From the NCBI GenBank assembly GCA_046089985.1, contig JBJSYW010000533.1, forward strand, positions 1-33,593: 33,593 bases of DNA, written 5' to 3'. Both the position numbers and the translations under genes were made by a program. The notes under the pieces were generated by a model, which made no database searches, was not told the DNA's origin, and saw nothing but the letters and a program-made list of their open reading frames with translations. How positions within the stretch are numbered: position 1 is the first letter of the stretch; each line of letters begins with the position of its first letter. Below, piece after piece: positions 9,159-33,593 of this stretch. The DNA is from Chloroflexota bacterium (lineage in GTDB: Bacteria > Chloroflexota > Anaerolineae > Anaerolineales > UBA4823).

Positions 9159-9164
9159 GGCGCT

Positions 9165-9181
9165 ATTATACCCAGTATAAT
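9165..9181. promoter_or_regulatory. Back-to-back perfect -10 boxes in the 29-bp HAD/mutL divergent spacer
   Basis: TATAAT on the minus strand (9165-9170) lies 6 nt before the GTG at 9158. TATAAT on the plus strand (9176-9181) lies 6 nt before the ATG at 9188. Neither gap contains an SD. Confidence 0.55.
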
Positions 9182-9187
9182 ACGCCC

Positions 9188-13047: not shown

Positions 13048-13082
13048 AGCGGCTCCTTCTCTAAATATCGGGTACTTAACCA

Positions 13083-13090
13083 ATTATAAT
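13083..13090. promoter_or_regulatory. Palindromic AATTATAATT giving TATAAT on both strands (RR gene / tilS divergent promoters)
   Basis: The plus-strand TATAAT at 13085-13090 is 9 nt before the tilS ATG (13100), with no SD in between. The minus-strand TATAAT at 13083-13088 is about 35 nt upstream of the RR gene ATG (13047), which does have an SD. Confidence 0.5.
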
Positions 13091-13099
13091 CTTCTTTAG

Positions 13100-16758: not shown

Positions 16759-18387
16759 TCATGACTCCAGATCACGCGCCAGGTACAGCTCGCCGCTGTG
16801 GAACCCCAGGCGGCGGTAATATTGGCGGGTGCCGACCGCCGAGATCACCGCCAGGCGGCGGAAGCCGCGCTGCTGCGCCAGGCGGGCCGCTTCTTCAACC
16901 AGGCGCGTGCCCAGGCCGCTGTGCTGGGCTGCGCCGGTCTCTTCCGCGCCCACCGCCAGCGCTTGACCATAGACGTGCACCTCGCGGATGATCGCCGCGC
17001 CCTGCAGGTCAGCTAAGCCGCACTCGGGCGCGCCGTCCGGCCCGCCCCACCCCGCGCCGGGCAGCGACAGGCGCAGGAAGCCCGCCAGATGGTCGCTCGG
17101 AGTGTCAAAGGACAGGAAGTGCTCCTCGGCGCCCGGCGTGGCATACACCAGGTCGTGCAGCGCCAGCTGCGCCGGGTCCACCTTCTGCTCGCCCACCTCG
17201 CGGCAGCGGATGCAGCGGCAGGCCTGGCCGCGCCGCTGCAGTTCGGCGTGCACATCCTGGCGCAGGCTGGTGCGCCGGTTGCCCTCCACCACATAGGTCG
17301 ACGGGATATCGCGGATCACCCGGTTGACCCGGCAGTAGCGCGGGATGCCGGGCTTGATATCCGCGATCAGGTCGATCAGCTCCTGGGTGGTGTACGGTCT
17401 GTATTCGCCGCGCTGCCAGACCGCGTACAGTTCGGCTTCCTTGAGCAGCTGGTTGGGGTAGATCTTGATCTCATCCGGGCAGCAGCCGTCCCACAGCCGG
17501 GCGAAGTCCTCCCGGTCGCCCTGCGGAGTTGCGCCGTACAGGTTGGGCATCCAGTGCAGCACAATCTTGAACCCGGCGGCGCGCAGCAGGTCCACCGCCT
17601 GCTTGGCCTGGGCGGCGCTGTGACCGCGCCGGTTCAGCGCCAGCAAGCCGTCATCCAGGCTCTGCACACCCAGCTGTACCTTGGTCACCCCTAACCGGCG
17701 CAGCCAGGCCAGTTCCTGCGGGGTGATCTCATCCGGGCGGGTCTCGATCACCAACCCCACGTTGCGGTGGGCGGCGGTCTCGTTATACGCCTGGGCCGCT
17801 TCCAGGCTGGGCAGCTCGGCGCCGTTCATCGCATCGAACAGGCGATGGATAAACCACTGCTGGTAATCGCGGCGGTAGGCGCTCCACGTGCCGCCCAGCA
17901 CCAGCAGCTCGATCTTATCGGTCGGGTGGCCCACCGCTTCCAGGGCCTGGATGCGCGCCGCCACCTGGGCGTAGGGGTCAAAATCGTGCTCCAGCGCCCG
18001 CCGGGCGCCCGGTTCGTCCTGGATATAGCTCTTCGGCATGCGCACGTCGGTGGGGCAGAAGATGCACTTGCCCGGGCACGGGTAGGGCATGGTCAGCACG
18101 GTGACCGTGGTGACGCCCGACAGCGTGCGCACCGGCTTCAAGCGGATGCGCTTGAGCAGCTGCGGGTCTTCCGCCCATTCGCCGCTTGCCACCAACCCGC
18201 GATAGGCCGCCACCAGCAGCGACTTGGCCGCATAACCGCCGTCTGGCAGCGGAAACCGGCGCACCGCATCCGTCACCTCCCGGCCGCGGCGCACCGCCTC
18301 CAGCACCTGGCGCGCTACCGCCAGCTTCTCGGGAGAAACTGCCCGCAGTTCGTGCCAGGTCGGCTGCTTTTCTGCTTTAGGGACCAT
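16759..18387 (-). CDS. elp3: Elp3-type tRNA uridine(34) carboxymethyl-modification enzyme (radical SAM + GNAT acetyltransferase)
   Basis: 542 aa. Radical-SAM cluster motif 'CPGKCIFCP', then 'ELLVLGGTWSAY'. The C-terminal GNAT domain has the acetyl-CoA motif 'QHSGLGTRLVEEAARLA'. The architecture matches archaeal/eukaryotic Elp3 and the rare bacterial homologues. Confidence 0.9.
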   Translation of the reverse strand: MVPKAEKQPTWHELRAVSPEKLAVARQVLEAVRRGREVTDAVRRFPLPDGGYAAKSLLVAAYRGLVASGEWAEDPQLLKRIRLKPVRTLSGVTTVTVLTMPYPCPGKCIFCPTDVRMPKSYIQDEPGARRALEHDFDPYAQVAARIQALEAVGHPTDKIELLVLGGTWSAYRRDYQQWFIHRLFDAMNGAELPSLEAAQAYNETAAHRNVGLVIETRPDEITPQELAWLRRLGVTKVQLGVQSLDDGLLALNRRGHSAAQAKQAVDLLRAAGFKIVLHWMPNLYGATPQGDREDFARLWDGCCPDEIKIYPNQLLKEAELYAVWQRGEYRPYTTQELIDLIADIKPGIPRYCRVNRVIRDIPSTYVVEGNRRTSLRQDVHAELQRRGQACRCIRCREVGEQKVDPAQLALHDLVYATPGAEEHFLSFDTPSDHLAGFLRLSLPGAGWGGPDGAPECGLADLQGAAIIREVHVYGQALAVGAEETGAAQHSGLGTRLVEEAARLAQQRGFRRLAVISAVGTRQYYRRLGFHSGELYLARDLES

Positions 18388-18388
18388 T

Positions 18389-18394
18389 TATAAT
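18389..18394 (+). promoter_or_regulatory. -10 box for the Trm9-like methyltransferase (leaderless configuration)
   Basis: Perfect TATAAT 7 nt before the GTG at 18402, with no SD. The box lies 1 nt from the divergent Elp3 start codon (18385-18387). Confidence 0.45.
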
Positions 18395-18401
18395 ACCTCG
18401 C

Positions 18402-19136
18402 GTGGACCTTTCTACCGCTAATCAATTGGTTGAACTCAACCGTCAATTTTACCAGACCTTCGCCCGCTCCTTTTCGGCCACCCGCCAGCGCCTGCAGCCG
18501 GGTGTGTGGCGCATCGTGGAAGAGCTGCCCGCCGGGGCTGCCGTGCTGGACCTGGGCTGCGGCAACGGCGAGTTGGGGCGCGTGCTGCTGGGGCGCGGCC
18601 ACACCGCGGGCTACACCGGGGTCGACTTCGCCCCCGCCCTGCTGGACGCCCGTCGGGAGTCGGCCGGCGCCCCGCCGGGAACGCTCGAGTTTGTCGAAGC
18701 CGACCTGGCCGCGCCGGGCTGGCAGGCGGCCCTGCCGGGCCGGCGCTTTGCGGTGATCACGCTGTTCGCCGTGCTGCATCACCTGCCCGGCGCGGCGGCT
18801 CGCCAGGCGCTGCTGGACGGCGCCGGTCAACTGCTGCTGCCCGGCGGGCGGCTGGAGCTTTCCTGCTGGCAGTTCCTGAACAGCCCGCGCCTGCGCCAGC
18901 GCATCCAGCCCTGGCAGGCCGCCGGGATTGACCCGGCCACGGTCGACCCCGGCGACTACCTGCTGGACTGGCGTCAGGACGGCGCCGGGCTGCGCTATGT
19001 GCACCATTTCGACGATCAAGAGCTGACCGGGTTGGCTGCCGCCGCCGGGTTCCAGGTCAGCCGGCGCTTCCACGCCGATGGCGAAGGCGGGCAGTTGAGT
19101 ATTTACCACACCTGGCAGCGATTAGGACCGGAGTAA
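18402..19136 (+). CDS. Class I SAM-dependent methyltransferase, Trm9/ALKBH8-MT-like
   Basis: 244 aa with a GTG start. 'FYQTFARSFSATRQRLQPGVWRIVEELPAGAAVLDLGCGNG', 'FAVITLFAVLHHLPG' and 'LLPGGRLELSCWQF' resemble the Trm9 pattern as I recall it (HFSxTR..PWP.V, D.GCGNGKY, ISIAVIHH, GG..L...WA.EQ). The generic methyltransferase call is solid. The Trm9 subfamily call is inference. Confidence 0.8.
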   Translation: MDLSTANQLVELNRQFYQTFARSFSATRQRLQPGVWRIVEELPAGAAVLDLGCGNGELGRVLLGRGHTAGYTGVDFAPALLDARRESAGAPPGTLEFVEADLAAPGWQAALPGRRFAVITLFAVLHHLPGAAARQALLDGAGQLLLPGGRLELSCWQFLNSPRLRQRIQPWQAAGIDPATVDPGDYLLDWRQDGAGLRYVHHFDDQELTGLAAAAGFQVSRRFHADGEGGQLSIYHTWQRLGPE

Positions 19137-19955: not shown

Positions 19956-20051
19956 CTGTCAAACCGATGTCAGCGCTTTGTCAAGCGCCGGCTGGAACAT
20001 CCGGTATAACTGAAGCGTCCAGGGTTCAAGCTCAATCCTAAGGAGGAAGAT

Positions 20052-21047
20052 ATGTCCACCCGAACCCATTCGATGTTTCGCCTGTTGGCCGCCCTGCTTG
20101 TCTTGACCCTGCTGCTGTCTGCCTGCGCCAGTGCAGCAGCCCCGCTCGAGATGGAAGCTCGCTCCGTTGAAGGCTATGGCGGCGGCGCTCCCGCCGCGGC
20201 CCCAGCTGCGCCGGTTATGGAAGCCCCGGCGGCCGAGTCCAAAGCCTACGACGCCGCCACCGGACAGTCTGCTAACACCGCCGCCGCTCAAGAGCGCATT
20301 GTGATCACCAACGGCAGCCTGACCATCACCGTCCCGGATCCCGGGGCTTCGATGGAACGCATTCGCGCCCTGGCCAAAGAGATGGGCGGCTTCGTGGTCG
20401 GCGCTAACCTGTACAAGGAGTATTCCAACACCGGCATCGAAGTGCCGCGCGCCAACATCACCATCCGCGTCCCCGCCGGGCGCATGGATGAGGCCATGCA
20501 GCGCATCCAGGCTGAAAGCGGCCAGGAGCCGCGCAATGTGACCATCACCAGCCAGGATGTGACCAGCGAATATGTGGACCTGCAGTCTCGCCTGGCCAAC
20601 CTGGAAGCGGCCGAGAAAGAACTCACCCGCATCATGGAAGACGCCAACCGCACCGAAGACGTGCTGGCGGTCTACCAGCAGCTGGTCTCGATCCGCGAGC
20701 AGATCGAGGTGATCAAGGGCCAGATCAAGTACTACGATGAAGCCTCGGCGCTGTCGTCGATCAGCGTCGACCTGGTGGCCGATGCAGCCGTGCAGCCGAT
20801 CGAGATCGGCGGCTGGCAGCCGCAGGGCGTGGCCAAAGACGCCCTGGAAGCCCTGGTACGCACGATGCAGGGCCTGGTTGAGGTGGTGCTGTGGCTGCTG
20901 ATCTACCTGCTGCCGGTGCTGCTGGTGCTGTCGTTGATCTTTGTGCTGCCGCCGTTCCTGATCATCCGGGCGCTGGTGCGCCGCAGCCGGGCCAAGAAAT
21001 CCGCTGCAGTGGCCGACTTCCCGCCGCCTGCCGCTCCGGCCGAGTAG
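20052..21047 (+). CDS. DUF4349-family lipoprotein with C-terminal membrane anchor
   Basis: 331 aa. The lipobox 'LLSAC' puts Cys at position 25. 'ITNGSLTITVPDP', 'ANITIRVPAGRMDEAMQRI' and 'VTSEYVDLQSRLANLEAAEKEL' match the DUF4349 pattern. A C-terminal TM helix is present. A strong SD 'taaggaggaagat' precedes the ATG. Confidence 0.8.
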   Translation: MSTRTHSMFRLLAALLVLTLLLSACASAAAPLEMEARSVEGYGGGAPAAAPAAPVMEAPAAESKAYDAATGQSANTAAAQERIVITNGSLTITVPDPGASMERIRALAKEMGGFVVGANLYKEYSNTGIEVPRANITIRVPAGRMDEAMQRIQAESGQEPRNVTITSQDVTSEYVDLQSRLANLEAAEKELTRIMEDANRTEDVLAVYQQLVSIREQIEVIKGQIKYYDEASALSSISVDLVADAAVQPIEIGGWQPQGVAKDALEALVRTMQGLVEVVLWLLIYLLPVLLVLSLIFVLPPFLIIRALVRRSRAKKSAAVADFPPPAAPAE

Positions 21048-21075
21048 CCCGCCGCTACTCCCCAATTCTGATCCC

Positions 21076-21105
21076 GGATCGCCCCCCACAACTGGGGGGC
21101 GATCC
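21076..21105 (+). terminator. Intrinsic-terminator-like hairpin after the DUF4349 gene
   Basis: Perfect 12-bp stem: 'ggatcgcccccc' (21076-21087) and 'ggggggcgatcc' (21094-21105), with a 6-nt loop. Confidence 0.55.
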
Positions 21106-21107
21106 AC

Positions 21108-21113
21108 TATAAT
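21108..21113 (+). promoter_or_regulatory. -10 box for rsmG (leaderless configuration)
   Basis: Perfect TATAAT 2 nt after the hairpin and 7 nt before the ATG at 21121. There is no SD. Confidence 0.5.
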
Positions 21114-21120
21114 TACCGCC

Positions 21121-21846
21121 ATGAAAGAACTTGCTGCCGCCGCCCGCAGCCTGTTGGGGATCAGCCTGACGCCGCTGCAGATCACTGCGTTCGAGACCTA
21201 CGAGCGAGAGCTGTTGAATTGGAACGCGAAAATGAACCTGACTGCCATCCGCGAACCGGAGGGCATCCGCACCAAGCACTTCCTCGATTCGCTGACCTGC
21301 CTGCTGGTGATGCAGGGCGCTCCAATGGAGCGCGTCATCGACGTGGGCACCGGGGCCGGTTTCCCCGGGCTGGCGCTGAAGCTCCTCAACCCGGCTATGC
21401 AGTTGACCCTGGTCGAATCGGTGGGCAAGAAGGCCGATTTCTGCCGCCACGTGGCCAAAACGCTCAAACTGGACGGGGTGCAGGTGCTGACCGAGCGCGC
21501 CGAAGCCGTGGGGCAGCTAAAAGCTCACCGCCAGGCCTATGACTGGGCGCTGGCGCGGGCCGTGGCGGTGCTGCCGGTACTGGTGGAATACCTGCTGCCG
21601 CTGGCGCGCGTGGGCGGGGCGGCACTGGCTATGAAAGGCGAGAGCGCCCCGGCCGAGGCGCACGATTCCGAGCACGCCAACCGGGTGTTGGGCGGTCACC
21701 TGCGCCGGCTGGTGCCGGTCACCCTGCCGGGGGTGGTTGAGCAGCGCTACCTGGTGGTGGTGGATAAAGTGGCGGCTACGCCGTCCGGGTATCCACGCCG
21801 GGTGGGCCTGCCGGCCAAGAACCCGCTCCTGCCGGTCAAAACCTGA
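21121..21846 (+). CDS. rsmG: 16S rRNA (guanine527-N7)-methyltransferase RsmG (GidB)
   Basis: 241 aa. 'WNAKMNLTAIREPEGIRTKHFLDSL', the SAM motif 'VIDVGTGAGFPGLALK', and 'LVESVGKKADF'. Confidence 0.92.
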   Translation: MKELAAAARSLLGISLTPLQITAFETYERELLNWNAKMNLTAIREPEGIRTKHFLDSLTCLLVMQGAPMERVIDVGTGAGFPGLALKLLNPAMQLTLVESVGKKADFCRHVAKTLKLDGVQVLTERAEAVGQLKAHRQAYDWALARAVAVLPVLVEYLLPLARVGGAALAMKGESAPAEAHDSEHANRVLGGHLRRLVPVTLPGVVEQRYLVVVDKVAATPSGYPRRVGLPAKNPLLPVKT

Positions 21847-23649: not shown

Positions 23650-25356
23650 TTATCCTTCAACATCATCGCCGTCATCCTCATATACCTTATCATGGTAGAT
23701 CTCCAGCAGGTTCAGGATGCGGTCGCGCTCGCGGGCGATTTCGGCTTTCTGCTTCTGCAGCTGCAGCTGCTGCATGCGGCGGAAGATATCCTGCTGCACC
23801 CGGGCCGGTTGGTACACCCCGTCGAAGGTCAGCTTGGCGTCGCCCACGTTTACCATCACGTTCCCAAAATTGAACAGGTAGCCGATAAAACCCCGGCGTT
23901 CGTGGTTCAGGCTGATCACCCGGTCCAGCGGAGCGGAAGTGCGGTTCTCAGTGCCCAGCGGCTTGCGCTCGATGTCGTAAATGCTGTCCTTGGTGATCTG
24001 GTAAATATCGTTCGACCAATCCAAATAATTATACATCCACCATACGAATACCGGAATGCTCACCACCAGCGACAGGCCGTCGATCACCGCCAGCATATCG
24101 GCCGCCAGGCTGCCGTTGAAGTACAGCACCAGGCTGACCACGAACAGTCCAAACAGCGTCAGCAGCACCACCCCCGGTCGCAAGGTCTTCCCCAGCAGCA
24201 CCAGCCAGTGCTTGCGGTAGGTAATTACATCGCCCACTTCGGTGCGCATGCGGAACCAGTTGCCAAAGTAGCGCTCGCCGAAGCCCAGTTCCTCGGCTTC
24301 ACCGGGACGGGTCTCCTGGCGGCGCGTCTGGCGGCGGCTGGCTGCCGCGGCAGCCAGCGGCGGCGGCGGGCCAGACGGCTCGCGCTTCAGGATCTTCAGC
24401 ACCTCGCGCTCGGTTTCCGACTTCTGCGCCTCCACCGCCAGGCGCTGGTGGCGCCGCCAGAACTCACGGATCACCGCGTCCATCTGGTACGGGTCGCTCA
24501 CCAGGCGCAGCGGCACTTCGCCGGTATAGGTGGTGACGACGATATCGCCATACCCCAGCCAGCGCCCCACCAGGCTGGTCAGGATCTTGGTGCCGCGCAC
24601 CTGGTCCAGCGGTGCTTCCACCTGGCTCTCGTACAACCACAGCACCCGTTCGATCCACACCACGCGCTGGTTGGTGACGATGTAATAATCGTTGCCCCAG
24701 TCGATCCAGTTCCACAGCCCCCAGGCGGCAGCGCTGAACGCTAACAGGCTGCCCACGATCAGCGCGCCGGTCTGCAGCGGGCCGGTTAATACCGCCCACA
24801 GTGTAAACGTCACGATCAGCCCCCCCAGCAGCAGCAGCAGGAACGGCAGGACCAGCGTCAGCAGCAGGTAGGCCGGGTGCTTGCGGCGCACCTGGTAGAC
24901 GGTCTCGTTCTCGTTCAGCCAGCTGAACGGGTAGCGGCGGATGAACTGGCGGCTGTAGATAATCCAGTTCAGGTAATTGCCCACGTGGGGGAACTCGGCC
25001 AGCAGCTTGTGGAAGGCCTGTTTCTCCGAAACGAGGAGGGTCACCTCACCATTTGCCCGAGCGGTTGCTGCCCGGGGACGGTGAAGGATCAGGCCCTCCT
25101 CGCCGAAGTAATCGCCCGTGGTGAGCATATCCAACTGGCGGTCTTCATTTTTCAATCGGGTGCTAAAAATGACATCGCCCTGTTGGATGATATAGAAGGC
25201 ATCGGCCGGGCCGCCCTGCTCACAGATCAGCTGCCCGGGTTGGTAGACCACCTCTTTGAAAAAACCGGCGGCCCTGGACAGCTGCGCTTCATCCATCCCT
25301 GAAAAGAGGTGGATCTCCTTAAAGAGTGGAATGGCCCGCGCGCGTTCGACCCTCAT
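23650..25356 (-). CDS. Cyclic-nucleotide-binding domain protein fused to two membrane-anchored bPH_2 (YdbT/YdbS-like) modules
   Basis: 568 aa. The N-terminal cNMP-binding fold is 'LFSGMDEAQL...GGPADAFYIIQQGDV...GDYFGEEGLI...RAATARA'. Two TM hairpins follow, each trailed by a PH-like segment: 'YYIVTNQRVVWIERV...GDIVVTT' and 'IYQITKDSIYDIERKP...GNVMVNVG'. Confidence 0.75.
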   Translation of the reverse strand: MRVERARAIPLFKEIHLFSGMDEAQLSRAAGFFKEVVYQPGQLICEQGGPADAFYIIQQGDVIFSTRLKNEDRQLDMLTTGDYFGEEGLILHRPRAATARANGEVTLLVSEKQAFHKLLAEFPHVGNYLNWIIYSRQFIRRYPFSWLNENETVYQVRRKHPAYLLLTLVLPFLLLLLGGLIVTFTLWAVLTGPLQTGALIVGSLLAFSAAAWGLWNWIDWGNDYYIVTNQRVVWIERVLWLYESQVEAPLDQVRGTKILTSLVGRWLGYGDIVVTTYTGEVPLRLVSDPYQMDAVIREFWRRHQRLAVEAQKSETEREVLKILKREPSGPPPPLAAAAASRRQTRRQETRPGEAEELGFGERYFGNWFRMRTEVGDVITYRKHWLVLLGKTLRPGVVLLTLFGLFVVSLVLYFNGSLAADMLAVIDGLSLVVSIPVFVWWMYNYLDWSNDIYQITKDSIYDIERKPLGTENRTSAPLDRVISLNHERRGFIGYLFNFGNVMVNVGDAKLTFDGVYQPARVQQDIFRRMQQLQLQKQKAEIARERDRILNLLEIYHDKVYEDDGDDVEG

Positions 25357-25366
25357 GCATCCCGCA

Positions 25367-25987
25367 TCAGGCGGTGCGCAGCTTGCGCGCCAGGAAGATC
25401 ACCGCTGCCAGCAGCACAGCCAGGCCCAGCATCACCGGCAGGCCCACTTCATCGGCAAAGCCGGTCTGGGGCATGGCAGTGGGTTGGACGGCGCCGCGCG
25501 CCGTCGCCGTCATGGCGTTCATTGTCACGATCGCTTCCAATGTGACATAGCGCGCCGTGGCTGTGGCGTCATCCGGCGAGATCGGCGCCCCGCCGCTGTC
25601 TGGCGCGGCCGCCGCCGGGGCGGAGGGCTGCGCCACAACCGGGGTGGGGGTCAGCGTGATGGTGGGCGTGGGCGGGACCGGGGTGTTGGTGGGGGTAGCC
25701 GTATAGGCCGCCACAATCGCCGTCTCGGCCGCGGAGGTGGAGGTCTGCTGCACAATCGCTTCTACTTCGGTCTGCTGAGCATCCAGGGTGGCCTGGCGGG
25801 CAACGGTACCGGCGCGCGAGCGCGGCAGCAGCACCAGGGCATACACAGCGATGCACACCAGCGCCAGCAGGGCAATGCCGCCCAGGGCCGCCGCAATAAT
25901 CAAGAAGGTGCGGTTGCTCGATTCTTCCACCGGCGGCGGCGCATCTTGGTTCAGGGTGTCATCCAGGTCCAGGTTTTCGAAACTCAT
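25367..25987 (-). CDS. Pro/Thr-rich exported protein with N-terminal anchor helix and C-terminal sortase-type sorting signal (MPQTG + TM + RKLR)
   Basis: 206 aa. It has an acidic N-terminus, a helix 'FLIIAAALGGIALLALVCIAVYALVLL' and a 'TPTNTPVPPTPTITLTPTP' linker. The C-terminus reads 'MPQTG' (25460-25474), then a hydrophobic stretch of about 24 aa, then 'RKLRTA'. A GAGGAG SD precedes the ATG. Confidence 0.7.
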   Translation of the reverse strand: MSFENLDLDDTLNQDAPPPVEESSNRTFLIIAAALGGIALLALVCIAVYALVLLPRSRAGTVARQATLDAQQTEVEAIVQQTSTSAAETAIVAAYTATPTNTPVPPTPTITLTPTPVVAQPSAPAAAAPDSGGAPISPDDATATARYVTLEAIVTMNAMTATARGAVQPTAMPQTGFADEVGLPVMLGLAVLLAAVIFLARKLRTA

Positions 25988-26004: not shown

Positions 26005-27057
26005 CTATGCGATCACTTCAAGGTTCGCCAGCGGAATAATCGCCTTTGCGCCGTTTTCCAGGCGCACTTCGGCAGCCGGGGCGCGCAGCCCGCCAGGGAA
26101 AACCACCGATCCCTTCATGGCAGTGAGGACACCGGCGGCCCCGGCGTAGGGCGCCCGGCGGATGCGCACCGCCTGGTCCAGCGCAAACTGGACCGATTCA
26201 GGCGGGGGGGTGACCAAACCGGAAGGCGGCATGGGGATGACCACCTCCGGACGAACGCCGCTGTAAGCGTTCCAGGCATCGGCGTTCAATGCCAGTTCGC
26301 GGCGGTCGCTGCTGATCAGCAGCTTGAAGGCGGCCGGGTGATAGGCCCGCCGGCCAAAGCCTTCCAGCACAATCACCGGGATGTTCAGGCGCTGCAGCTG
26401 CGGCGCCAGCGCGGCGCTCACGCCGGAGAAGATCAGCCCGCGCAGCGGCAGCTCGTCGGCCGTCTTGAGCGCTTCTGCGCTGGCGCCGTACCCCGCCAGC
26501 ACGATCGAGCCGCGCATGCTCACATCCAGGTCGGAAGGCTGCAGTTCGTGCTCGGGCTGGCGGGCTACGCAGGTCAGCACGCCGAAGTCGAGCCGGCCGT
26601 TGCCCCATACGCCTTGGATCAGCGCCCCCGTGCCTTCGACTACTGCGCCGCGCTCGGGCACCAGATCCACCACTTCGCCCGGCAGCCCGGCCTTGATCTG
26701 CAGCGGTTTGCTGAGCGTTTCCAGCAGCACCTGGCCGTTGCCAGCCAGCATCACCCGCCCGTCACGCGGGCAGCGGATCACCCGTTTGAAGATCCCCACC
26801 GGGCCGGCCAGGATGTCTTTCTCAGCCAGCTGATCGCCTTCGTGCACCTTCAGGTGCTTATCGGCTTTCTCGGCCGGCAGCCCCAGGCCGCGGGCGATGT
26901 CCACCAACAGGTAATCGGCGTTGGCGGTTGTCTCGGCCAGCACATCGCTCGGGCCGACCTTCTGCCCGGCGCGCACCAGCACTTTGCCGGGCGCCGGCAG
27001 CAGCCGGGTGCGGCGGATGGTGGTCAGCGGCAAGATATGGGTCACCGGCGCTAGCAT
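26005..27057 (-). CDS. Hypothetical protein with barrel-sandwich-hybrid-like N-terminus and KOW-like C-terminus
   Basis: 350 aa and soluble. 'GKVLVRAGQKVGPSDVLAE' resembles lipoyl/biotinyl-type hybrid barrels. C-terminal 'VRIRRAPYAGAAGVLTAMKG...VRLENGAKAIIPLANLEVI' resembles a KOW motif. A GGGAGG SD precedes the ATG. A 1-nt gap separates it from the upstream stop. I recognise no family. Confidence 0.65.
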   Translation of the reverse strand: MLAPVTHILPLTTIRRTRLLPAPGKVLVRAGQKVGPSDVLAETTANADYLLVDIARGLGLPAEKADKHLKVHEGDQLAEKDILAGPVGIFKRVIRCPRDGRVMLAGNGQVLLETLSKPLQIKAGLPGEVVDLVPERGAVVEGTGALIQGVWGNGRLDFGVLTCVARQPEHELQPSDLDVSMRGSIVLAGYGASAEALKTADELPLRGLIFSGVSAALAPQLQRLNIPVIVLEGFGRRAYHPAAFKLLISSDRRELALNADAWNAYSGVRPEVVIPMPPSGLVTPPPESVQFALDQAVRIRRAPYAGAAGVLTAMKGSVVFPGGLRAPAAEVRLENGAKAIIPLANLEVIA

Positions 27058-27058
27058 G

Positions 27059-28810
27059 CTACTGGCCTCCCAGGTTCCACAACCATTTTTTATACAGCTC
27101 GGCCCTGCGCCCCCGGTCGGCCGGCAGGTTCAGTGGGCGGCCGCGGGCGTCGATAATCACCCCCAGCACGCCGCCCATCACGCGCAAACCGCCGCCGCGC
27201 CCCGGCGCGCCCATGCCAATATCGGCGCGGTGCAGCGGCTGCAGCTGCAGCTTCGCCATCTGCCCAGCCGGCAGCGGCAGCATCTCCAGGCTGCCCTGCT
27301 TGACCTCCAGCGAGGCTTCGTATCCGCTCTCATAGACGATCTTCAACCGCAGCACCGGCTCACCGCTGCGCACGCGCGCCAGCGGCGCAATCACCGTGCC
27401 GATATGCAGCAGCGAATTGGAATCGAGCACCTGCACCACCAGGGTGGGGTTTTGCGCCGCAGCCGCCCCCAACGCCGATACCATGTTGTGCTGGTCCAGC
27501 ACCATCGTGGTGATCCCGGTCGGCTGGATTCCATCCAGCATCATCAGCGTGCTGTGAGCCACGTTGGGCGCGCCCGCCAGCACCCCGCCGGCGGCGATGA
27601 TCGGCTCGAAGGCCGGCAGCAGCCCGGTTGCCAGCGGTTGGGCGGCCGCCGGGAAACCCGGGGCGGCCGCTTTCAGGGCGCTACGCATCAGATAGCGCGC
27701 CAGCGCCTGCTCGATCGCCATCTCTTCCGCCGTAGCCGGCAGGCTGTCGGGCAGCAGGGCTTTGTTGTACAGGTAGTCGCGCAGGTCGTCAAGCGGCATA
27801 TCCAATGCCAGCCAGCTGGAGATCGCCTCCAGCGCGCCGGGGTCGCTCTCATACACCGGACTGCCCATCCCATACTGTGGAAAAACGTTTAACGACAGGC
27901 TGCCGTCATACGCCGCCGCCACGCTGATCGCCCCCGCGCCCAGGTCGATCCCCAGGACACCTTTACGGGTGGCGTGGGTCTTGCTCTGGATGCGCACGAT
28001 GCGCCCAAAGGCGCTGGCGGTGGGCAGCAGCCCGCCGCCGGCCCAGCGGTTCAACTCGTCCACCCCGGGGATCTGCTTCGCTCGCACCTGAGTGTACATG
28101 CGCGCCATCTCGGCTCGTGCGCCTTCGATCTGCTCGGTCTCCAGATCGGGCCGCAGGTTGGGGGCAAAATGCAGGTTGGTGACCGGGCCCAGGCTCTCCT
28201 GGATTTCGTCTTTGAGGCTATCGTTGCCAGCGAACAGCAGTTCCGGACGGCCGCTGCTGCCGGTCAGATAGCCGTACAGGCCAACCGCCTCCAGCATCTG
28301 GATCACCGACTGCGACGCGCCGCCCTGCGTCCCGCCCGCGGCGATGATCAGGTCCGGGCGTTGGCGCAGCAGCAGGTTAATGCGCGTGTCGGTGCGCCGG
28401 CGGTCATTCAGGCTGAACGCCCCCTGCACGTTAGCATACGTGGAGGCCGCCAGCCGCCGGGCGCTTTCCAGGCTGATATCTTCCAGCAGGCCCACCACCA
28501 CCACCTTGAGCGGCTCGCCGGCCGAGAGCGTGGCGGCGAAACGGTCAATTCCCGAGCCGTCTGGTGCGGAAGGGATGATCAACTGCTCATCCGCGCCGAT
28601 CAGCGTGCGTCCGGTGATCGTCTGCAAGCGGTCCAGCGCCAGCCGCACGCCTTCGCCAACATTATTGAAGGGAGCTTTAGCGGTGGACGGCGCCGTGCCG
28701 GAGGCCACAAAGCGGTAACGCCCCTCGACCACATCAAAGAGCACCGCGCGGGTGTTCACCGTGCCGACATCTACAACCAGGAAGGAATCTGCATCGAGCA
28801 ACGAAGTCAT
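27059..28810 (-). CDS. GlmL/'glutamate mutase L'-type ASKHA-superfamily (actin/Hsp70-fold) ATPase with C-terminal extension
   Basis: 583 aa. Phosphate-1 motif 'FLVVDVGTVNTRAVLFD', 'GEPLKVVVVGLLEDISLESARRLA', 'PDLIIAAGGTQGGASQSV', 'LLFAGNDSLKDEI', and a second-lobe motif 'VLGIDLGAGAISVAAA'. The order matches GlmL-family proteins as I recall them. The C-terminal roughly 120 aa ends in 'GVIIDARGRPLNL'. Confidence 0.7.
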   Translation of the reverse strand: MTSLLDADSFLVVDVGTVNTRAVLFDVVEGRYRFVASGTAPSTAKAPFNNVGEGVRLALDRLQTITGRTLIGADEQLIIPSAPDGSGIDRFAATLSAGEPLKVVVVGLLEDISLESARRLAASTYANVQGAFSLNDRRRTDTRINLLLRQRPDLIIAAGGTQGGASQSVIQMLEAVGLYGYLTGSSGRPELLFAGNDSLKDEIQESLGPVTNLHFAPNLRPDLETEQIEGARAEMARMYTQVRAKQIPGVDELNRWAGGGLLPTASAFGRIVRIQSKTHATRKGVLGIDLGAGAISVAAAYDGSLSLNVFPQYGMGSPVYESDPGALEAISSWLALDMPLDDLRDYLYNKALLPDSLPATAEEMAIEQALARYLMRSALKAAAPGFPAAAQPLATGLLPAFEPIIAAGGVLAGAPNVAHSTLMMLDGIQPTGITTMVLDQHNMVSALGAAAAQNPTLVVQVLDSNSLLHIGTVIAPLARVRSGEPVLRLKIVYESGYEASLEVKQGSLEMLPLPAGQMAKLQLQPLHRADIGMGAPGRGGGLRVMGGVLGVIIDARGRPLNLPADRGRRAELYKKWLWNLGGQ

Positions 28811-28811
28811 A

Positions 28812-29486
28812 TCAGGCCGCCGGTGTAATCAAGACCAGGATCAGGTGGATGATCGCATCCCAGCGCTCGATCAGCGCTGCCAGCGCCGCCGCGTACACCC
28901 CGGCGAAGATCGTCCCCAGCGTGACCGCGATGAAGACCTGCCCGGTGGCAGACACGCCGCGCAGCAGCAGGCCGGGCGAGCCGGCGCTGAGGCGTGGGCT
29001 GAGGTTGAACTGGAAATACGCCAGCGTCGCAAGGGTGCCGGCCAGGATCACCAACCCGTTGAGCACGGTCAGCGCGTCGCTGCGGTCAATCTGCTGGATG
29101 CCGGCGCGCACCTGGGGCAGCAGCGTGCCCAGCACAGCGCCGCCGATCAGCGCCGCCGCGCCCACGCCGACCAGGAAGGCCATCACCGGGCTGCCCAGCC
29201 CCGCCAGCCGGGTGGTGGCCTTGCTGAGCAGCAGCAGCGCTCCCAGCAGCGGCACAGCCGCCAGCAGCATCTGGTCGGGCATACCTGATAGGAACGGCAG
29301 CACCAGCCGCGGCACGATCAGATTGGTGATCACCACCGCCGCCGTGTAACCGGCGGCGACCCCGATGAAGATATGGATCGCGGTGCGGAACAGCACGTTG
29401 TCGCCAAATAGATAGCTAAACACCATCAGGGTGAGCAAGAAACCCACCAATCCGCCCAGCAGCGTGCTCAGGTCGATTCCGTTCAT
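28812..29486 (-). CDS. Polytopic integral membrane protein, uncharacterised
   Basis: 224 aa with about 6 hydrophobic helices (for example 'LLGGLVGFLLTLMVFSYLF' and 'IHIFIGVAAGYTAAVVITNLIV'). It has an ATGA overlap with the upstream gene and a 1-nt gap to the downstream gene. Confidence 0.7.
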   Translation of the reverse strand: MNGIDLSTLLGGLVGFLLTLMVFSYLFGDNVLFRTAIHIFIGVAAGYTAAVVITNLIVPRLVLPFLSGMPDQMLLAAVPLLGALLLLSKATTRLAGLGSPVMAFLVGVGAAALIGGAVLGTLLPQVRAGIQQIDRSDALTVLNGLVILAGTLATLAYFQFNLSPRLSAGSPGLLLRGVSATGQVFIAVTLGTIFAGVYAAALAALIERWDAIIHLILVLITPAA

Positions 29487-32400
29487 GATTTCGCCTCACC
29501 CTGGCTGCCCGCCGCCGGGCGATCCGCCGGGCGGGAGGCCTTGCGGTTCGCGTTCCAACGGCTGATCAGGTTGAACAGGATGCCCACCAGCATCAAGACG
29601 CCGGCCACCAGCATGCCGACGGTATAGGCCGGCCAGTAGCGGGTGCCGGCGCCAGCTTGCACGGTGGCCCATTCCAGGGCCGCTGCACCGTACAGCCCGC
29701 TGACCAGCCCCTGCACCTGCCCGGCGTCATAATACGGGCGCACCATCGGCTCGGCCTGGGCGCTGCTCACCACCACCAGCGGCAGCGACCCCGCCAGCGG
29801 GCGGTGCACCTGCTCGATCCAACTGCGCGCCGTTTCAGGGTCATCCACCGCAACGATCAACAGCTTGAAGCCCGCCAGCCCGCCGGGCTGGCGCAGCCCG
29901 GCCTGGGTCTGCCAGACCGGTTCGCCATTCACATCCAACGGCAGCACTGCCGCCGGGCAGACGGCAAACGCCAGCAGGCCGGAAGCGCCGCCGGGGACCA
30001 GCCCCAGGTTGGTATAATCCTGCGGCGACTGCCATGCCGGCCCCTGGGCCTGCCGCGAAACGGCCAGCAAATGCTCGGCCTGCAGCGGCCCGGTGGGCAG
30101 CGTGGAGACCATCGCCAGATAGGCCTGGCGCTCAGACAGCTGCCGCAGCACAACCTGCATGATTGGGTCCAGTTCGCCCGAGTACCCCGGCTGATAATCG
30201 ACCGCCAACAGCACCGGCGATTGGGGCGGCACGCTGCGCAGCAGTTCCAGCGCCGTCGCCACTTCCGGCGCCATCGCCGGAGCAGCCGCCGGCGGATAGC
30301 CAGTGAACAACGACAGCGCCACCGGCAGGATCAACAGGAAAGCCATCGCCAGGCGCAGCACGCCCAGCGAGGTGATCGCCGGTTTGCCGGGCGGCGGCGG
30401 GTTCTGCCCTTCCTGCGCCACCAGCTGGCCAAGCAGTTCGGCCTGCGTGCGATGCAGATCGGAAACAACCAACCGTCCGGTATAAGCCGGCGGACGAGTG
30501 GCCTGCGAGATATCCGGCTCGGCGCGCAGCGCGCCGCGCAGCCCAGCCAGCGGGCCGGCCCCAGCCACACCCTCACTCTCATCGGCGGCGGCAGCCGCCG
30601 CGCCCACCGCCCCCACCGGGCGCATCGCCTGCAGCCAACCGGGCAGTTCAGAGGGCGCCAGGTCGGCAGGGGCGGCAGCCGCCAGCCCGGCTTCGTCCGG
30701 CTCCTGCGCCACCCAGGTCGGCAGGCCCACATCGGCAGCGGGCAGTTCAGCCACCCGATCGCCCGAGGCGCTGTCGCCGGCTTCACCGTCCTCCGGCTGC
30801 ACCTGCTCCAGCCAGCTCAGGTCGCCTTCGCCCAGTGCGCTGCCATCGGCAGCCGTGGAGAAACCGGGCGTGGCGCCGGCAATTGCCGCCATCCAGTCTG
30901 GCATGCCCGGCTGGGCCGCCGGCTCCAGGGCAGCCCCATGATCAGGCTGGACCAACCAATCTGGGGTCTCAAACAGCTCTGCTGCGCCGGAAGGTTCGCC
31001 CGCCCCCAGGCCGGCGTCTGCGGCAGGCTCGCCGGCCGCGCCGGGGGTCTCGGCCGCCTCGTCAGCCGCGCTGCTGAGCCAATCCAGTTCTTCATCACCC
31101 GGCCAGGCGGCGTCGCCGCCGGCGCTCAGCCAATCCGGCACTTCACCGGCTGCGGTTGAAGAGGCCGGAGCCGCGCCCGGCGCAGCGCGGTCTGCTGCGG
31201 CGCTATCTGGAGCCGCCGGGGAAGCCGCCGCACCGGCAGACGGCGTCAGCCAGTCAGACAGCGCTTCGTCACCCGCCGCGGCCATCCAGTCCGGCAGTTC
31301 GGTCGCCTGAGCCGGGGCTTCTGCCTGCGGCGCGGCCGGGAAGACCTCCGCTCCTGCGGCGGCGCCCGCCGGGCTGAGCCAGTCGGGCAGGCCGCCTGGG
31401 GCGCTCGCCTCAGCAGGCGCCATCCAATCGGGCAGTTCACCCGGGGCACTCTCATCCGTAGACGCCATCCAATCGGGCAGTTCGGCCGGGGCGCTTTCTC
31501 CAGCACCCGTCATCCAGTCCGGCAGTTCGGCCGGGGCGCTTGCATTGGCAGACGCCATCCAATCGGGCAGATCAGCCTGCCCCGGGGTGGGTGGAGCCGC
31601 CGGCTCCGGTTTCAGCCAATCCGGCGTATCGTCCGCCAGGTGCGCATCTCCGCTTCCCGACAACCAGTCCGGCAGATCAGCCTGGGCCGGCGGGTTCAGC
31701 CAATCCGGCAGATCGCCGGACGGCTGCGCCGGCTGTGCCGACGGGAAGACCTCCGCCCCCAAGGATGGGGTATCGGTACTCGATGCGCTCATACTCGCAG
31801 CGCCGGCGCTGAGCCAGTCCGGCAGACCGCCGGACGGTGGGGCTTCATTGGCGGAAGACATCCAGTCCGGCAGTTCATCAGCCGGCTGGGCCTCACTGGC
31901 AGACGCCATCCAGTCCGGCGCTGCCGGGCCGGGCTGTGGCGCCGCCGCTCCCGGCTCCGGCTTGAGCCAGTCGGGCAGGTCATCGGCGGCCGGGGTGCTG
32001 TTCAGCCAGTCGGGCAGGCCGCTGTCTGCCGCATCAGGGATCGGCTGTGACAGGAAATCAGCCTCGCCATTGGCAGCCTGGCCTGGCTTATCAGACGCCG
32101 GCTCCTGCCCGCCAATGCGCGACAGCCAATCCCCGGCCGCGCTGTCTTCATACTCGCCGCTCGCCGGGCTGTCCCACTCCTCGGCAGATCCGGGGGCGTC
32201 TCCCAGGATTTCATCCAGCCAATCTCGCCCGCCGCCCGCCGGAGCGTCCGAGGCGGCGTCCTGAGCGGGGACGTTCTCAGCCGGCAGTTCCGGCTCGGAG
32301 CGCAGCCCGCTCAACCAATCCGGCAGCCCATCCTGCGCTCCCGGCGCAGCTGAGCCGGGCTTACCCGGCGGCTGGTTGTCCGGCTGGCGCAGATCGCTCA

Positions 32401-32563
32401 GCCAGCCAGGCAGGCTGAACTCTTCCCCTCCGCCGGCCGGCTGGTCGGGGTTCAGGTCGCCCAGCCAGACCGGTTTGAGGCGCGCCTGGCAGAACTGGCA
32501 CACATCCCGGTCGGCCGGGTTGGGTTTTCCACACATCGGACAGCGCACGTCAGCCATGCTCAT
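29483..32563 (-). CDS. Zinc-ribbon protein with about 600-aa acidic PDW[LM]-repeat region and C-terminal TM-ectodomain-TM module
   Basis: 1026 aa. 'CPMC-x10-CQFC' spans residues 8-25. I hand-counted 26 copies of xPDW[LM]-type motifs between residues 51 and 645. TM helices lie at about 731-753 and 979-1001 and flank an alpha/beta-looking domain of about 225 aa. ATGA overlaps occur at both ends of the gene. Confidence 0.8.
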   Translation of the reverse strand: MSMADVRCPMCGKPNPADRDVCQFCQARLKPVWLGDLNPDQPAGGGEEFSLPGWLSDLRQPDNQPPGKPGSAAPGAQDGLPDWLSGLRSEPELPAENVPAQDAASDAPAGGGRDWLDEILGDAPGSAEEWDSPASGEYEDSAAGDWLSRIGGQEPASDKPGQAANGEADFLSQPIPDAADSGLPDWLNSTPAADDLPDWLKPEPGAAAPQPGPAAPDWMASASEAQPADELPDWMSSANEAPPSGGLPDWLSAGAASMSASSTDTPSLGAEVFPSAQPAQPSGDLPDWLNPPAQADLPDWLSGSGDAHLADDTPDWLKPEPAAPPTPGQADLPDWMASANASAPAELPDWMTGAGESAPAELPDWMASTDESAPGELPDWMAPAEASAPGGLPDWLSPAGAAAGAEVFPAAPQAEAPAQATELPDWMAAAGDEALSDWLTPSAGAAASPAAPDSAAADRAAPGAAPASSTAAGEVPDWLSAGGDAAWPGDEELDWLSSAADEAAETPGAAGEPAADAGLGAGEPSGAAELFETPDWLVQPDHGAALEPAAQPGMPDWMAAIAGATPGFSTAADGSALGEGDLSWLEQVQPEDGEAGDSASGDRVAELPAADVGLPTWVAQEPDEAGLAAAAPADLAPSELPGWLQAMRPVGAVGAAAAAADESEGVAGAGPLAGLRGALRAEPDISQATRPPAYTGRLVVSDLHRTQAELLGQLVAQEGQNPPPPGKPAITSLGVLRLAMAFLLILPVALSLFTGYPPAAAPAMAPEVATALELLRSVPPQSPVLLAVDYQPGYSGELDPIMQVVLRQLSERQAYLAMVSTLPTGPLQAEHLLAVSRQAQGPAWQSPQDYTNLGLVPGGASGLLAFAVCPAAVLPLDVNGEPVWQTQAGLRQPGGLAGFKLLIVAVDDPETARSWIEQVHRPLAGSLPLVVVSSAQAEPMVRPYYDAGQVQGLVSGLYGAAALEWATVQAGAGTRYWPAYTVGMLVAGVLMLVGILFNLISRWNANRKASRPADRPAAGSQGEAKS
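30629..32413 (-). repeat. Coding array of 26 dispersed PDW[LM]-type peptide motifs (DNA cores ccaGTCcggcag / ccaATCgggcag on the plus strand)
   Basis: There are 18 exact P-D-W-[LM] copies and 8 degenerate copies (LPGWL x2, RDWL, GDWL, LSDWL, ELDWL, LSWL, LPTWV). Spacers are 6-45 aa and rich in A/P/G/S/D/E. Synonymous codons differ among copies. Confidence 0.9.
31376..31573 (-). repeat. 45-bp (15-aa) periodic tandem block inside the PDW array
   Basis: Residues 331-396 read LPDWMA-SANASAPAE / LPDWMT-GAGESAPAE / LPDWMA-STDESAPGE / LPDWMA-PAEASAPGG / LPDWLS. The plus strand shows the recurring 'catccaRtcSggcagttc'. Confidence 0.85.
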
Positions 32564-33186
32564 CCACCGTACGGGCGGTCAGCGCCCATCAGAACGCGCA
32601 GACCGGCGGTAACCGATCCAAGCGCCACGCCCAGTAAAATACCGCGCGCCCCGGCCGTCGCCATGGCCTGCAGCAGCCAGACGCGCAGTTCGGTCACACC
32701 CGGCACACCCACCCCACCCAGGAAGAAGGTGGTCAGCAGCAGCACCAGCACCGTGGCGGCGAAAACCAGCGTAAACAGGTTGGCGCGCCGGTAGAGCATC
32801 CGCCCAACGGCGAACACCAGCACCACCGCCAGCAGCGCCAGCAGGCTGGACTCGACCGGCAGCAGCAGGTTCTGGTAAATCCAAACCGAAGGGGCGCTGG
32901 ATAAACCAAAAACCAGCCCCACCACCAGCGTGACCACCAGCGACAGCAGCAGCACCAGGCTGTAGAACAGACCAGGCTGACCGGTACGCACTTTCTTCCA
33001 ATGCACGCGGGCCAGGTTCAGCACACCCACCAGCAGGGCCGCTCCAGCCAGCAGCGTAGCCCAATCGACCAGCAGCACGCGGGCCGGCGTGAGCAGGGGC
33101 AGATCAATAAAATACGGCGCCAGCACAATCAACCCGCTGGCGATAGCGATCATCGCCAGCAGCGGGGCCTGCACCCGGCGGTTCAC
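32560..33186 (-). CDS. Polytopic integral membrane protein, uncharacterised
   Basis: 208 aa with a GTG start, and about 6 hydrophobic helices. It has a GTGA overlap with the upstream ORF and an ATGA overlap with the downstream giant gene. Confidence 0.65.
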   Translation of the reverse strand: MNRRVQAPLLAMIAIASGLIVLAPYFIDLPLLTPARVLLVDWATLLAGAALLVGVLNLARVHWKKVRTGQPGLFYSLVLLLSLVVTLVVGLVFGLSSAPSVWIYQNLLLPVESSLLALLAVVLVFAVGRMLYRRANLFTLVFAATVLVLLLTTFFLGGVGVPGVTELRVWLLQAMATAGARGILLGVALGSVTAGLRVLMGADRPYGG

Positions 33187-33593
33187 AGCACACCTGCCAG
33201 GCGCAGCAGTGCGCCGATGATCATCCCCAGCACCAGCAGCAGCCGCGCCACATCCTGCGCCTGCACGCTGGCGGTATGCGCCGCGCCCACCTGGGTGTAG
33301 GCGCCGGCGGCGTACAGTTCCTCACCCACCAGCGGCTCCTGCGCCAGGGCATACAGCACAGCCTGCGCTGCCAGGTTCTCCGAACCACCCAGGCTGGCGC
33401 CGCCGCTGCGTTCGGCTGCATCGGCGATCAGCGCCGCCTCTGCGCCAAACGAACCCGCCAGCATGTTCACTGACACCTGCTGGTCGTAGACCACCGGCAG
33501 CGCCCCGGCAGCATACGAGAACGGCGTCACCCCTGCCAGCATCCCGGCGTGCGGGTCATACTGGTCCTCGGCGTTGACCGCCTGGAAGGCGCT
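33183..33593 (-). CDS. Hypothetical (probably membrane-associated) protein, 5'-truncated by the window edge
   Basis: The reading frame stays open to the last base of the window ('SAFQAVNAEDQYDPHAGMLAGVTPF...'). It ends in a hydrophobic helix 'LLLVLGMIIGALLRLAGVL'. The listed ATG at 33542 is probably internal. Confidence 0.55.
   Translation of the reverse strand, partial: SAFQAVNAEDQYDPHAGMLAGVTPFSYAAGALPVVYDQQVSVNMLAGSFGAEAALIADAAERSGGASLGGSENLAAQAVLYALAQEPLVGEELYAAGAYTQVGAAHTASVQAQDVARLLLVLGMIIGALLRLAGVL

Follow-up and report, generated by a model that had tools for sequence, protein, structure and literature searches.

The subject of this report is a gene in a 33,593-nucleotide stretch of Chloroflexota DNA (NCBI GenBank assembly GCA_046089985.1, contig JBJSYW010000533.1), the whole of which is referred to below as the window. 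The gene (29483..32563, minus strand) has relatives in 186 species genomes and encodes a protein of 1026 aa that combines an N-terminal zinc ribbon, a long acidic linker carrying an array of tryptophan motifs of the type PDW[LM], and a transmembrane (TM) hairpin around an alpha/beta domain. The motif is conserved in orthologues and recurs in soluble proteins of other architectures, and to judge from these sequences it looks like part of a bacterial peptide-docking system that has not been described. A disordered tether bearing multivalent short linear motifs is a known kind of device and probably represents the working mode of this protein; new are the motif itself, the bacterial context, the recurrence in several architectures, and the tie to an orphan module of membrane proteins and an ASKHA ATPase. 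No family model, annotation or paper covering the motif, the domain inside the hairpin or the operon was found in Pfam, NCBIfam or a literature search. Literature searches on DUF6754, YIEGIA, PF13941 and GlmL returned nothing relevant, and those on Anaerolineae and FtsZ returned nothing on the locus of the array protein.

The linker (residues 51-645; 30629..32413, minus strand) is probably disordered and cytoplasmic. A regular-expression count found 18 exact PDW[LM] motifs and 26 W[LMV] sites within it, in agreement with the hand count of an initial annotation that had been made from the sequence alone, and a further VWL at residue 33. In 2000 composition-preserving shuffles of the linker, the exact motif occurred 0.035 times on average and never more than once. 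Nearly all Trp residues of the N-terminal part (27/29 in residues 1-645) fall in a motif. The same annotation had described the region as low in complexity and rich in A, P, G, S, D and E, and these residues do account for 72% of positions 51-700. Residues 51-645 hold 106 Asp or Glu against 10 Lys or Arg, giving a net charge of about -96.

The motif copies vary in their synonymous codons (CCG, CCC or CCA for Pro; GAC or GAT for Asp), as had been noticed earlier. The sole real DNA-level tandem array detected in the gene by Tandem Repeats Finder is a 45-bp unit at 31379..31570 (no strand assigned; residues about 331-395), with 4.3 copies and 76% matches. Since the codons differ and only this one diverged array is present, the motif is kept at the peptide level, and an artefact of recent DNA repeats was rejected on the same ground. 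The 45-bp repeat does indicate that a block of about five motif copies came from an old unit duplication, and shows that copy number grows in this way. The earlier statement that the array is not a recent DNA expansion thus stands as regards age, the only tandem array being an old one, and has to be amended in that part of the copy number arose by duplication of a unit.

Within the linker, the copies are most crowded between residues 184 and 400 (31364..32014, minus strand), where they are spaced by 12-38 aa. This dense block is largely lineage-specific, and most of its copies have no hydrophobic residue at position +4 from the Trp. Across the whole window protein the +4 hydrophobic residue is kept at 8/27 sites, compared with 22/23 and 42/57 in two other members of the family; representative 14-mers are EEDLPDWLRELE for the family-type motif and SAPAELPDWMASAN for the window-type motif. 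The last motif, LPGWLQAMRPV (residues 640-650; 30614..30646, minus strand), is fused to a family-invariant extension. It is followed by a conserved linear segment specific to the family, GPLAGLRGALRAEP (residues 670-683; 30515..30556, minus strand), a degenerate form of which is kept even in P0036, a member that has no array. The operon's own partners may dock at this segment.

The orthologue scan, in which each species was represented by one genome, led to the retention of 80 loci, nearly all of them labelled as Anaerolineae or Chloroflexota metagenome-assembled genomes. Full-length orthologues are 700-1070 aa long, carry the same N-terminal ribbon, and have 7-20 W[LMVI] sites each. The logo of 688 units from 58 full-length orthologues reads E-E-[ED]-[LVI]-P(78%)-D(64%)-W(100%)-L(86%)-[SA]-x-[LMI]-R, which gives a family consensus of [DE]3-(L/V/I)-P-D-W-L-x-x-(L/M/I). 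In these 58 proteins 87% of linker Trp residues lie in a motif. Across orthologues the linkers contain on average 24% acidic and 5% basic residues, and motif copy number correlates with linker length (r = 0.75).

Positional conservation was assessed in an alignment of the window protein and its six closest orthologues, whose linkers range from 256 to 697 aa. Motif columns were 57% identical against 25% for the spacers, and Trp was aligned to Trp in 91% of cases, which is an upper bound as the aligner favours Trp-Trp pairs. Conservation of position extends to four or five copies at the start of the array and three or four at its end, and the window protein has lineage-specific extra copies at residues about 184-400 and 524-576. 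It does not hold the record, as the family member with the highest count (P0068, 2219 aa) has 38 PDW[LM] and 60 W[LMIV] sites. Taken together, the logo and the contrast between motif and spacer columns indicate that orthologues keep the motif and not the composition alone, in line with the prediction of the initial annotation, and that the motif is under selection beyond mere composition.

The same array was found in proteins outside this family. When the dense repeat block was used in a word-indexed search, four proteins came back, namely three in which the array lies between TPR domains (TPR-array-TPR) and one fragment of the family itself. A motif profile of 21 positions, built from the window's own 26 units and hence biased towards its flavour of the motif, was run against 1.84 billion representatives and matched 257 proteins at E<=1e-3. 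Among the top 150 of these, for which the architecture was broken down, 77 have the C-terminal domain of the family and 73 do not. The latter include about 31 TPR-array-TPR proteins (500-1860 aa), in some of which a ComEA-like HHH domain (HHH_3) is present, about 25 proteins that start with IESPVDGPTPDWM and end in a short TPR-like domain, and two double zinc ribbon array proteins. A TM segment is absent from 71 of the 73.

The logo of the non-family arrays, [ED]3-L-P(80%)-D(71%)-W-L(85%)-[RKQS]-[ED]-hydrophobic, is the same as that of the family. In the soluble array proteins P0046, P0048, P0049, P0053, P0054, P0069, P0071 and P0128 the repeat was not covered by any Pfam model. The few array proteins with named records come from Anaerolineae, Anaerolineaceae or an unspecified 'bacterium'. 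Neither the window nor 1.4 Mb of orthologous loci contained an array gene from outside the family.

Natural controls are provided by members of the family that have little or no array. P0036 (407 aa; L083 7633-8856 and L084 7244-8467; lineage of GCA_964601655.1) consists of the ribbon, a short linker with 0 W motifs, a degenerate GPLAGL-type segment and the hairpin domain, and P0044 (499 aa; L085 1288-2787) has about one motif. Both are flanked by a membrane protein of ~210 aa, a membrane protein of 226-240 aa, a MutL/ASKHA protein and a protein of ~335-353 aa. DUF6754 is present in both P0036 loci, and the first gene of the P0044 locus, truncated where the contig ends, has no Pfam call. The LPXTG gene is absent from the P0036 and P0044 loci; this co-absence with the array concerns two lineages and may be purely phylogenetic. 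Since members without the array sit in the same operon, the core complex does not need it, and on this comparison the array is an accessory add-on to the core module. Together with the occurrence of the same array in soluble TPR proteins, these operons suggest that it serves as an accessory platform and not as the glue of the core complex.

The reading frame 29483..32563 is uninterrupted, as first described, and the same gene is called by NCBI (MFM8322398.1, 'hypothetical protein ACKOC5_15905 [Chloroflexota bacterium]'). A spurious reading frame was ruled out by its orthologues and fixed synteny. The NCBI start is the second in-frame ATG, two codons downstream, giving a protein of 1024 aa that begins MADVRCPMC. 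Most orthologues share a start of this type (MADVRCP), and the true start is probably at 32557, not at the first ATG of the reading frame (32557-32563).

The N-terminal C4 zinc ribbon (CPMC-x10-CQFC, residues 8-25) has the spacing C8-x2-C11-x10-C22-x2-C25. It had been recognised in the initial annotation at the correct residues, and only its start required correction by one codon, from 32486 to 32489 (32489..32542, minus strand). In the window protein the match to Pfam DZR_2 (PF18912) is below threshold (19.2 bits; cutoff 27), the ribbon of orthologue P0015 scores 28.1 against a cutoff of 28 for DUF7577 (PF24463), and that of P0044 scores 38.2 against a cutoff of 25 for Zn_Ribbon_1 (PF13240). 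The ribbon is near-invariant in orthologues, with the consensus M-a-e-x-r-CPmCGk-NP-x5-CqfC-ARLkP. A zinc-binding anti-sigma factor (ZAS) was considered and rejected, as the ribbon has no His and so lacks the H-x3-C-x2-C motif, and the operon contains no gene for a sigma factor, whether in the window or in the 80 loci.

The C-terminal part was modelled with AlphaFold2 (residues 640-1026) from an alignment of 22 homologues, with a mean predicted local distance difference test score (pLDDT) of 81.9 and a predicted template modelling score (pTM) of 0.70. In the model, a segment of low confidence that contains the two invariant linear motifs is followed by a juxtamembrane cytoplasmic helix (residues 701-718; 30410..30463; pLDDT 81-85), TM helix 1 (residues about 732-754; placed at about 733-755, 30299..30367, in the map of the gene), a six-stranded Rossmann-like alpha/beta/alpha domain that is predicted to be extracytoplasmic (residues about 766-966; 29666..30268), and TM helix 2 (residues about 972-1009; placed at about 976-1003, 29555..29638, in the same map). 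A basic cytoplasmic tail (residues 1004-1026; 29486..29554) is recognised from sequence, and all these features are on the minus strand. The model agrees with the helix, alpha/beta segment, second helix and basic tail that had been read from the sequence, and the overall architecture proposed there, a zinc ribbon, an acidic low-complexity linker and a TM hairpin round an alpha/beta domain, was upheld. The array protein has no signal peptide, its TM1 has Lys and Arg on the N-side, and TM2 is succeeded by five basic residues. Because of these features and the N-terminal Cys4 ribbon, the topology would be a hairpin with both termini inside and the alpha/beta domain outside.

The ectodomain is an orphan. 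Its conserved motifs are VLLAVDYxPGxSGEM, STxPTGP, NLGYxPGG, WIEQ and SAQAEPxVRPYY, and no Pfam or NCBIfam model covers it. A Foldseek search of the PDB gave nothing at E<=1e-3; the best match had E = 3.9e-3 with TM below 0.3, and the top matches were unrelated Rossmann-like folds (a WaaG half-domain, shikimate dehydrogenase and integrin I-domains). The C-terminal family profile found no relative among PDB sequences (best E = 0.97). Assignment to the vWA or integrin I-domain, or to any solved Rossmann-like family, was therefore rejected for want of a significant fold or profile match.

The array gene is the third of an operon whose order, as determined by tblastn of the window proteins against the 80 loci, is fixed in essentially all of them: DUF6754, 6-TM protein, array protein, 7-TM protein, ASKHA ATPase, 350-aa protein and 206-aa protein. 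Genes are missing only where a contig ends, neighbouring genes share a few bases, and the ASKHA and 350-aa genes are syntenic with the array gene in 75-78 of the 80 loci. In the window all are on the minus strand. The DUF6754 membrane protein, operon gene 1 (33183..33593), is cut by the window end. It is followed by a 208-aa protein with about 6 TM segments (32560..33186), whose stop overlaps the start of the array gene, and beyond the array gene by a 224-aa protein with about 7 TM segments (28812..29486), whose start overlaps the stop of the array gene. Neither of these two membrane proteins belongs to a family or has a Pfam match at E up to 10.

The ASKHA ATPase (27059..28810, 583 aa) matches the Pfam MutL/GlmL model (PF13941) with 203 bits and is a family-level member. 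It is not a GlmL equivalog, as it scored 89 against a cutoff of 475 for NF040745 and 77 against 204 for TIGR01319, and neither the window nor the loci have a B12-dependent mutase gene near it. At its C-terminus about 120 aa (residues about 464-583) extend beyond the MutL/GlmL domain; this extension has a beta-rich look and no family match. From N- to C-terminus the soluble 350-aa protein (26005..27057) comprises a barrel-sandwich hybrid, an alpha/beta part and a KOW/SH3-like barrel. It is highly conserved (52-67% identity at a length of about 350 aa, >1500 clusters) and has no family assignment. Its AlphaFold2 model is mostly beta (pLDDT 85.4). The best Foldseek match in the PDB was T. maritima NusG (E = 1.7e-4), and further matches were Spt5 KOW domains, PetP and the Pex13 SH3 domain. 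Among 32 orthologues, Pfam KOW was found in 23 and barrel-sandwich hybrids of the RnfC_N or biotin-lipoyl type in 10-15. Phmmer and profile searches of PDB sequences found no relatives of the ASKHA ATPase or the 350-aa protein, and the latter has no convincing relative among solved structures.

The 206-aa protein (25367..25987) combines a TM anchor at the N-terminus with a stalk rich in Thr and Pro and a sorting signal of the LPXTG type (TIGR01167, 19.8 against a cutoff of 15.9). Its tail consists of MPQTG, a hydrophobic stretch and RKLR (MPQTG...RKLRTA), with LPDTG in place of MPQTG in locus L004, and [LMIV]PxTG occurs in the last 45 residues of 60/74 orthologues. From these signals it is probably a sortase substrate. 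In 36/80 loci the operon is linked to the gene of a membrane protein (568 aa; 23650..25356) that has a cNMP-binding domain at its N-terminus as well as bPH_2 domain(s). In a search with PADLOC the seven operon proteins had no match, so that a role in anti-phage defence was rejected; the 568-aa protein gave weak matches to Pycsar/TIR effectors through its cNMP domain alone.

The operon lies next to the def and recF genes in about 35 of 80 loci. In L015 the gene upstream of DUF6754 is on the opposite strand, in L083 DUF6754 is preceded by an 83-aa gene, and in L085 a PspA/IM30 gene is found two genes downstream of the operon. The remainder of the window holds housekeeping genes, among them recF, def, rsmG, mutL, FTHFS and TrkA. 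Three of its open reading frames had no Pfam match at E<=1e-5, all on the minus strand: 13076-14359 (427 aa), which adjoins a response-regulator gene at 11893-13083, 18315-19109 (264 aa) and 19959-21185 (408 aa). A 500-aa reading frame (29657-31159, plus strand) overlaps the array gene in antisense, and a 732-aa frame without a Pfam match (8789-10987, minus strand) overlaps the mismatch-repair mutL gene (9110-11038, plus strand) in the same way; both are probably artefacts of high GC content.

The reading preferred here, to which we give about an even chance, is that the arm displays a helical Trp motif in many copies and captures a cytoplasmic receptor by avidity at an envelope-spanning module. 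The array protein would be the hub subunit of an Anaerolineae-specific membrane module, its TM hairpin holding the orphan Rossmann-like domain outside, with the zinc ribbon and the disordered arm of ~600 residues in the cytoplasm. Behind a Pro-Asp cap, the hydrophobic residues of the motif at -3, 0, +1 and +4 line up on one face in the order i, i+3, i+4, i+7, a spacing that would be the signature of a short amphipathic helix. Each copy would fold into such a helix on docking into a groove of a folded receptor, and weak single copies would cooperate by avidity and 'fly-casting', thereby concentrating the receptor at the membrane complex. Core partners would more likely use the invariant zinc ribbon and the LPxWLxAMRPV and GPLAGLRGxLPAEP segments. 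A lineage-wide protein of the cytoplasm is a likelier receptor than a partner from the operon, since the motif is shared with soluble TPR proteins and some operons have no array, which argues against an obligatory partner in the operon. Several points tell against the preferred reading. The receptor and the binding of the motif are putative, and disorder and helix formation on binding are read from composition and residue spacing only. Most of the extra window copies have lost the +4 hydrophobic residue and may bind more weakly or serve another purpose. The matching of Trp to Trp between orthologues was partly favoured by the aligner itself, and the term 'lineage-wide' refers to a few named Anaerolineae records.

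The arm may instead have no dedicated receptor. It would then be a polyanion of stickers and spacers, with Trp and Leu as stickers and acidic residues between them, that associates with itself or assembles with the soluble array proteins and with cations or basic partners, resulting in a membrane-attached condensate or a brush that excludes or organises the cytoplasm near the complex. The extreme charge of the linker throughout the orthologues, a copy number of 0 to 60 that tracks linker length, the occurrence of the same stickers in several soluble proteins and the many window copies pared down to a minimal LPDW[LM] are all consistent with this. However, the conservation of six motif positions, including Pro and Asp, across unrelated architectures is more specific than an aromatic sticker needs, the copies at both ends are conserved in position, and like-charged chains repel each other, so that this explanation is rather unlikely. 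If, on the other hand, the array recruited the operon's own cytoplasmic proteins, as the initial annotation had suggested (the ASKHA ATPase or the 350-aa protein), docking would resemble that of peptides in ASKHA clefts, such as the FtsZ tail on FtsA, PilN on PilM, ParR on ParM and WH2 on actin, or of peptides on SH3-like barrels. The tight synteny of both genes with the array gene argues for such recruitment, as does the ASKHA fold, which is a recurrent peptide receptor. In addition, the 350-aa protein ends in a KOW/SH3-like barrel, and the SH3 domain of PEX13 binds WxxxF motifs (PMC11024197). We nevertheless regard recruitment within the operon as unlikely, as array-less members keep the same ASKHA and ~350-aa neighbours, the same array occurs in soluble proteins unlinked to these genes, and the SH3/KOW matches are generic fold similarity (E about 1e-2).

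Two further explanations concern the location of the arm. Trp prefers membrane interfaces, the array protein is anchored in the membrane anyway, and the W-motif region of PEX5 interacts weakly with membranes (PMC8086558), so the motifs could be interfacial anchors whose Trp and Leu enter the bilayer, so that the arm is zipped to its inner leaflet. Each motif is preceded by three acidic residues, though, and a net charge of about -96 would be repelled by anionic bacterial lipids; moreover, the same arrays are found in 71 soluble proteins without TM segments and between TPR domains, which makes anchoring of this kind very improbable. Finally, the repeat region could lie outside the cell and bind wall or matrix, with the Rossmann-like domain in the cytoplasm. 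An envelope function is likely for the operon, given its LPXTG-sorted wall protein and several membrane proteins. For the repeat region, an outside location would require the export of more than 700 highly acidic residues by a protein that has no signal peptide and begins with a Cys4 zinc ribbon, the basic residues before TM1 and the five after TM2 point the other way, and the homologous arrays in proteins without TM segments have no hydrophobic leader, which leaves this location extremely unlikely.

Multivalent arrays of short linear motifs within long disordered stretches are a staple of eukaryotic cell biology and have rarely been documented in bacteria. In the present case a single Trp motif is conserved in 58 full-length orthologues, occurs in at least four protein architectures at 0 to 60 copies per protein, and has one carrier that is hard-wired into an operon of six to seven genes, which is strictly conserved and entirely uncharacterised. 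With a defined peptide, W-to-A controls and the natural array-less variants at hand, it offers a testable entry point to two questions, how a bacterial motif-receptor network is built and what role the orphan membrane/ASKHA module plays in the Anaerolineae, which are abundant and poorly studied. One repeat and two orphan domains are flagged here as being without family models.

With regard to known systems, bitopic adaptors of the RodZ/ZipA type resemble the array protein in combining a small binding domain in the cytoplasm with a long disordered linker, a TM segment and a domain on the outside, and they too are encoded beside an ASKHA-fold ATPase and polytopic membrane proteins. There is no kinship in sequence or fold, and the protein described here differs in having a zinc ribbon where these have an HTH, two TM helices and the motif array. 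The endocytic DPW/DPF/NPF arrays likewise present multivalent aromatic motifs in acidic disordered regions and act by avidity. This comparison, which was already drawn in the initial annotation, is one of analogy: the order in the endocytic motif is D-P-W, whereas the core here is P-D-W-[LM] within a motif of about 8-10 residues, and the host is bacterial. Membership in the D-P-[FW]/N-P-F class was rejected because Pro precedes Asp, and no AP-2 appendage or EH domain was found among the operon proteins.

FtsZ's tail at the C-terminus (DYLDIPAFLRKQAD in E. coli) shares the register of the motif, with acidic residues followed by I/L at -3, P at -2, any residue at -1, an aromatic at 0, L at +1 and R/K at +2. 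FtsA binds this tail (PMC4117426), and its critical residues I374 and L378 correspond to the conserved -3 and +1 positions of the array motif (PMC4117426). It is also alike in that the single peptide is weak and affinity is gained through multivalency, with binding at 20-81 uM for the peptide versus 0.21 uM for full-length FtsZ (PMC4117426). The differences are that in FtsZ the motif, [DE]-[IV]-P-x-[FY]-[LM]-[RK], has Phe or Tyr as its aromatic and stands at the extreme C-terminus, while the array motif is invariably Trp, internal and repeated. When a position-specific scoring matrix of 2538 units was applied to FtsZ sequences, the tail was the best-scoring segment in B. subtilis and the second best in E. 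coli. These scores were not above those of shuffled sequences (matched by 1309/2000 and 841/2000 shuffles, respectively), because Phe is penalised at the invariant Trp position. No FtsZ gene was present in the retained loci, and the comparison covers the tails of B. subtilis and E. coli. That the PDWL unit mimics the FtsZ tail, and the arm is a covalent 'polymer of tails' presented from the membrane beside an ATPase of the FtsA fold, seems quite improbable. If it were true, the arm and the soluble TPR-array proteins would engage or compete for FtsZ-tail receptors (FtsA, SepF-like proteins or the operon ASKHA), and filamentous Anaerolineae would have a hitherto undescribed means of tethering, positioning or antagonising the division machinery. 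In more general terms, the Anaerolineae would then have a network of short linear motifs, bacterial in this case, on a par with the PEX5 or KLC systems.

The W-acidic motifs bound by the TPR domains of kinesin light chain (KLC) also place a Trp with acidic flanks in disordered regions, and this binding is micromolar and partly electrostatic (PMC6214655). The KLC motif is [LM]-[DE]-W-[DE], whereas Pro-Asp precedes and Leu or Met follows the Trp in the array. Assignment to the KLC type was rejected on this basis: D/E occupies position -1 in 76% of copies, but Leu/Met follows at +1 in 92%, and the acidic residues are at -6 to -4 and +3. Arrays and TPRs are combined in one chain in about 31 of the top 150 motif-profile matches.

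A parallel in layout is provided by PEX5, in which an array of WxxxF/Y motifs binds PEX14 and the SH3 domain of PEX13 (PMC8086558, PMC11024197). Like the array protein, PEX5 has a long disordered region with several Trp-centred short helical motifs that meet folded receptors at a membrane, and like the soluble array relatives it joins a disordered W-array to a TPR domain. PEX5 differs in being eukaryotic, in its copy number (about 6-8 versus up to 26-60) and in the residue at +4, which is aromatic there and L/M/I or missing here. Its receptor is PEX14, of which no counterpart was identified, and here the array itself is anchored in the membrane. The PEX5-type WxxxF/Y motif was accordingly rejected as a description of the array, in which +4 is L/M/I/F/V in about 64% of family copies (8/27 in the window) and Phe in only 6%. 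By analogy with W-acidic recognition in KLC and with the layout of PEX5, TPR domains are plausible receptors for the motif.

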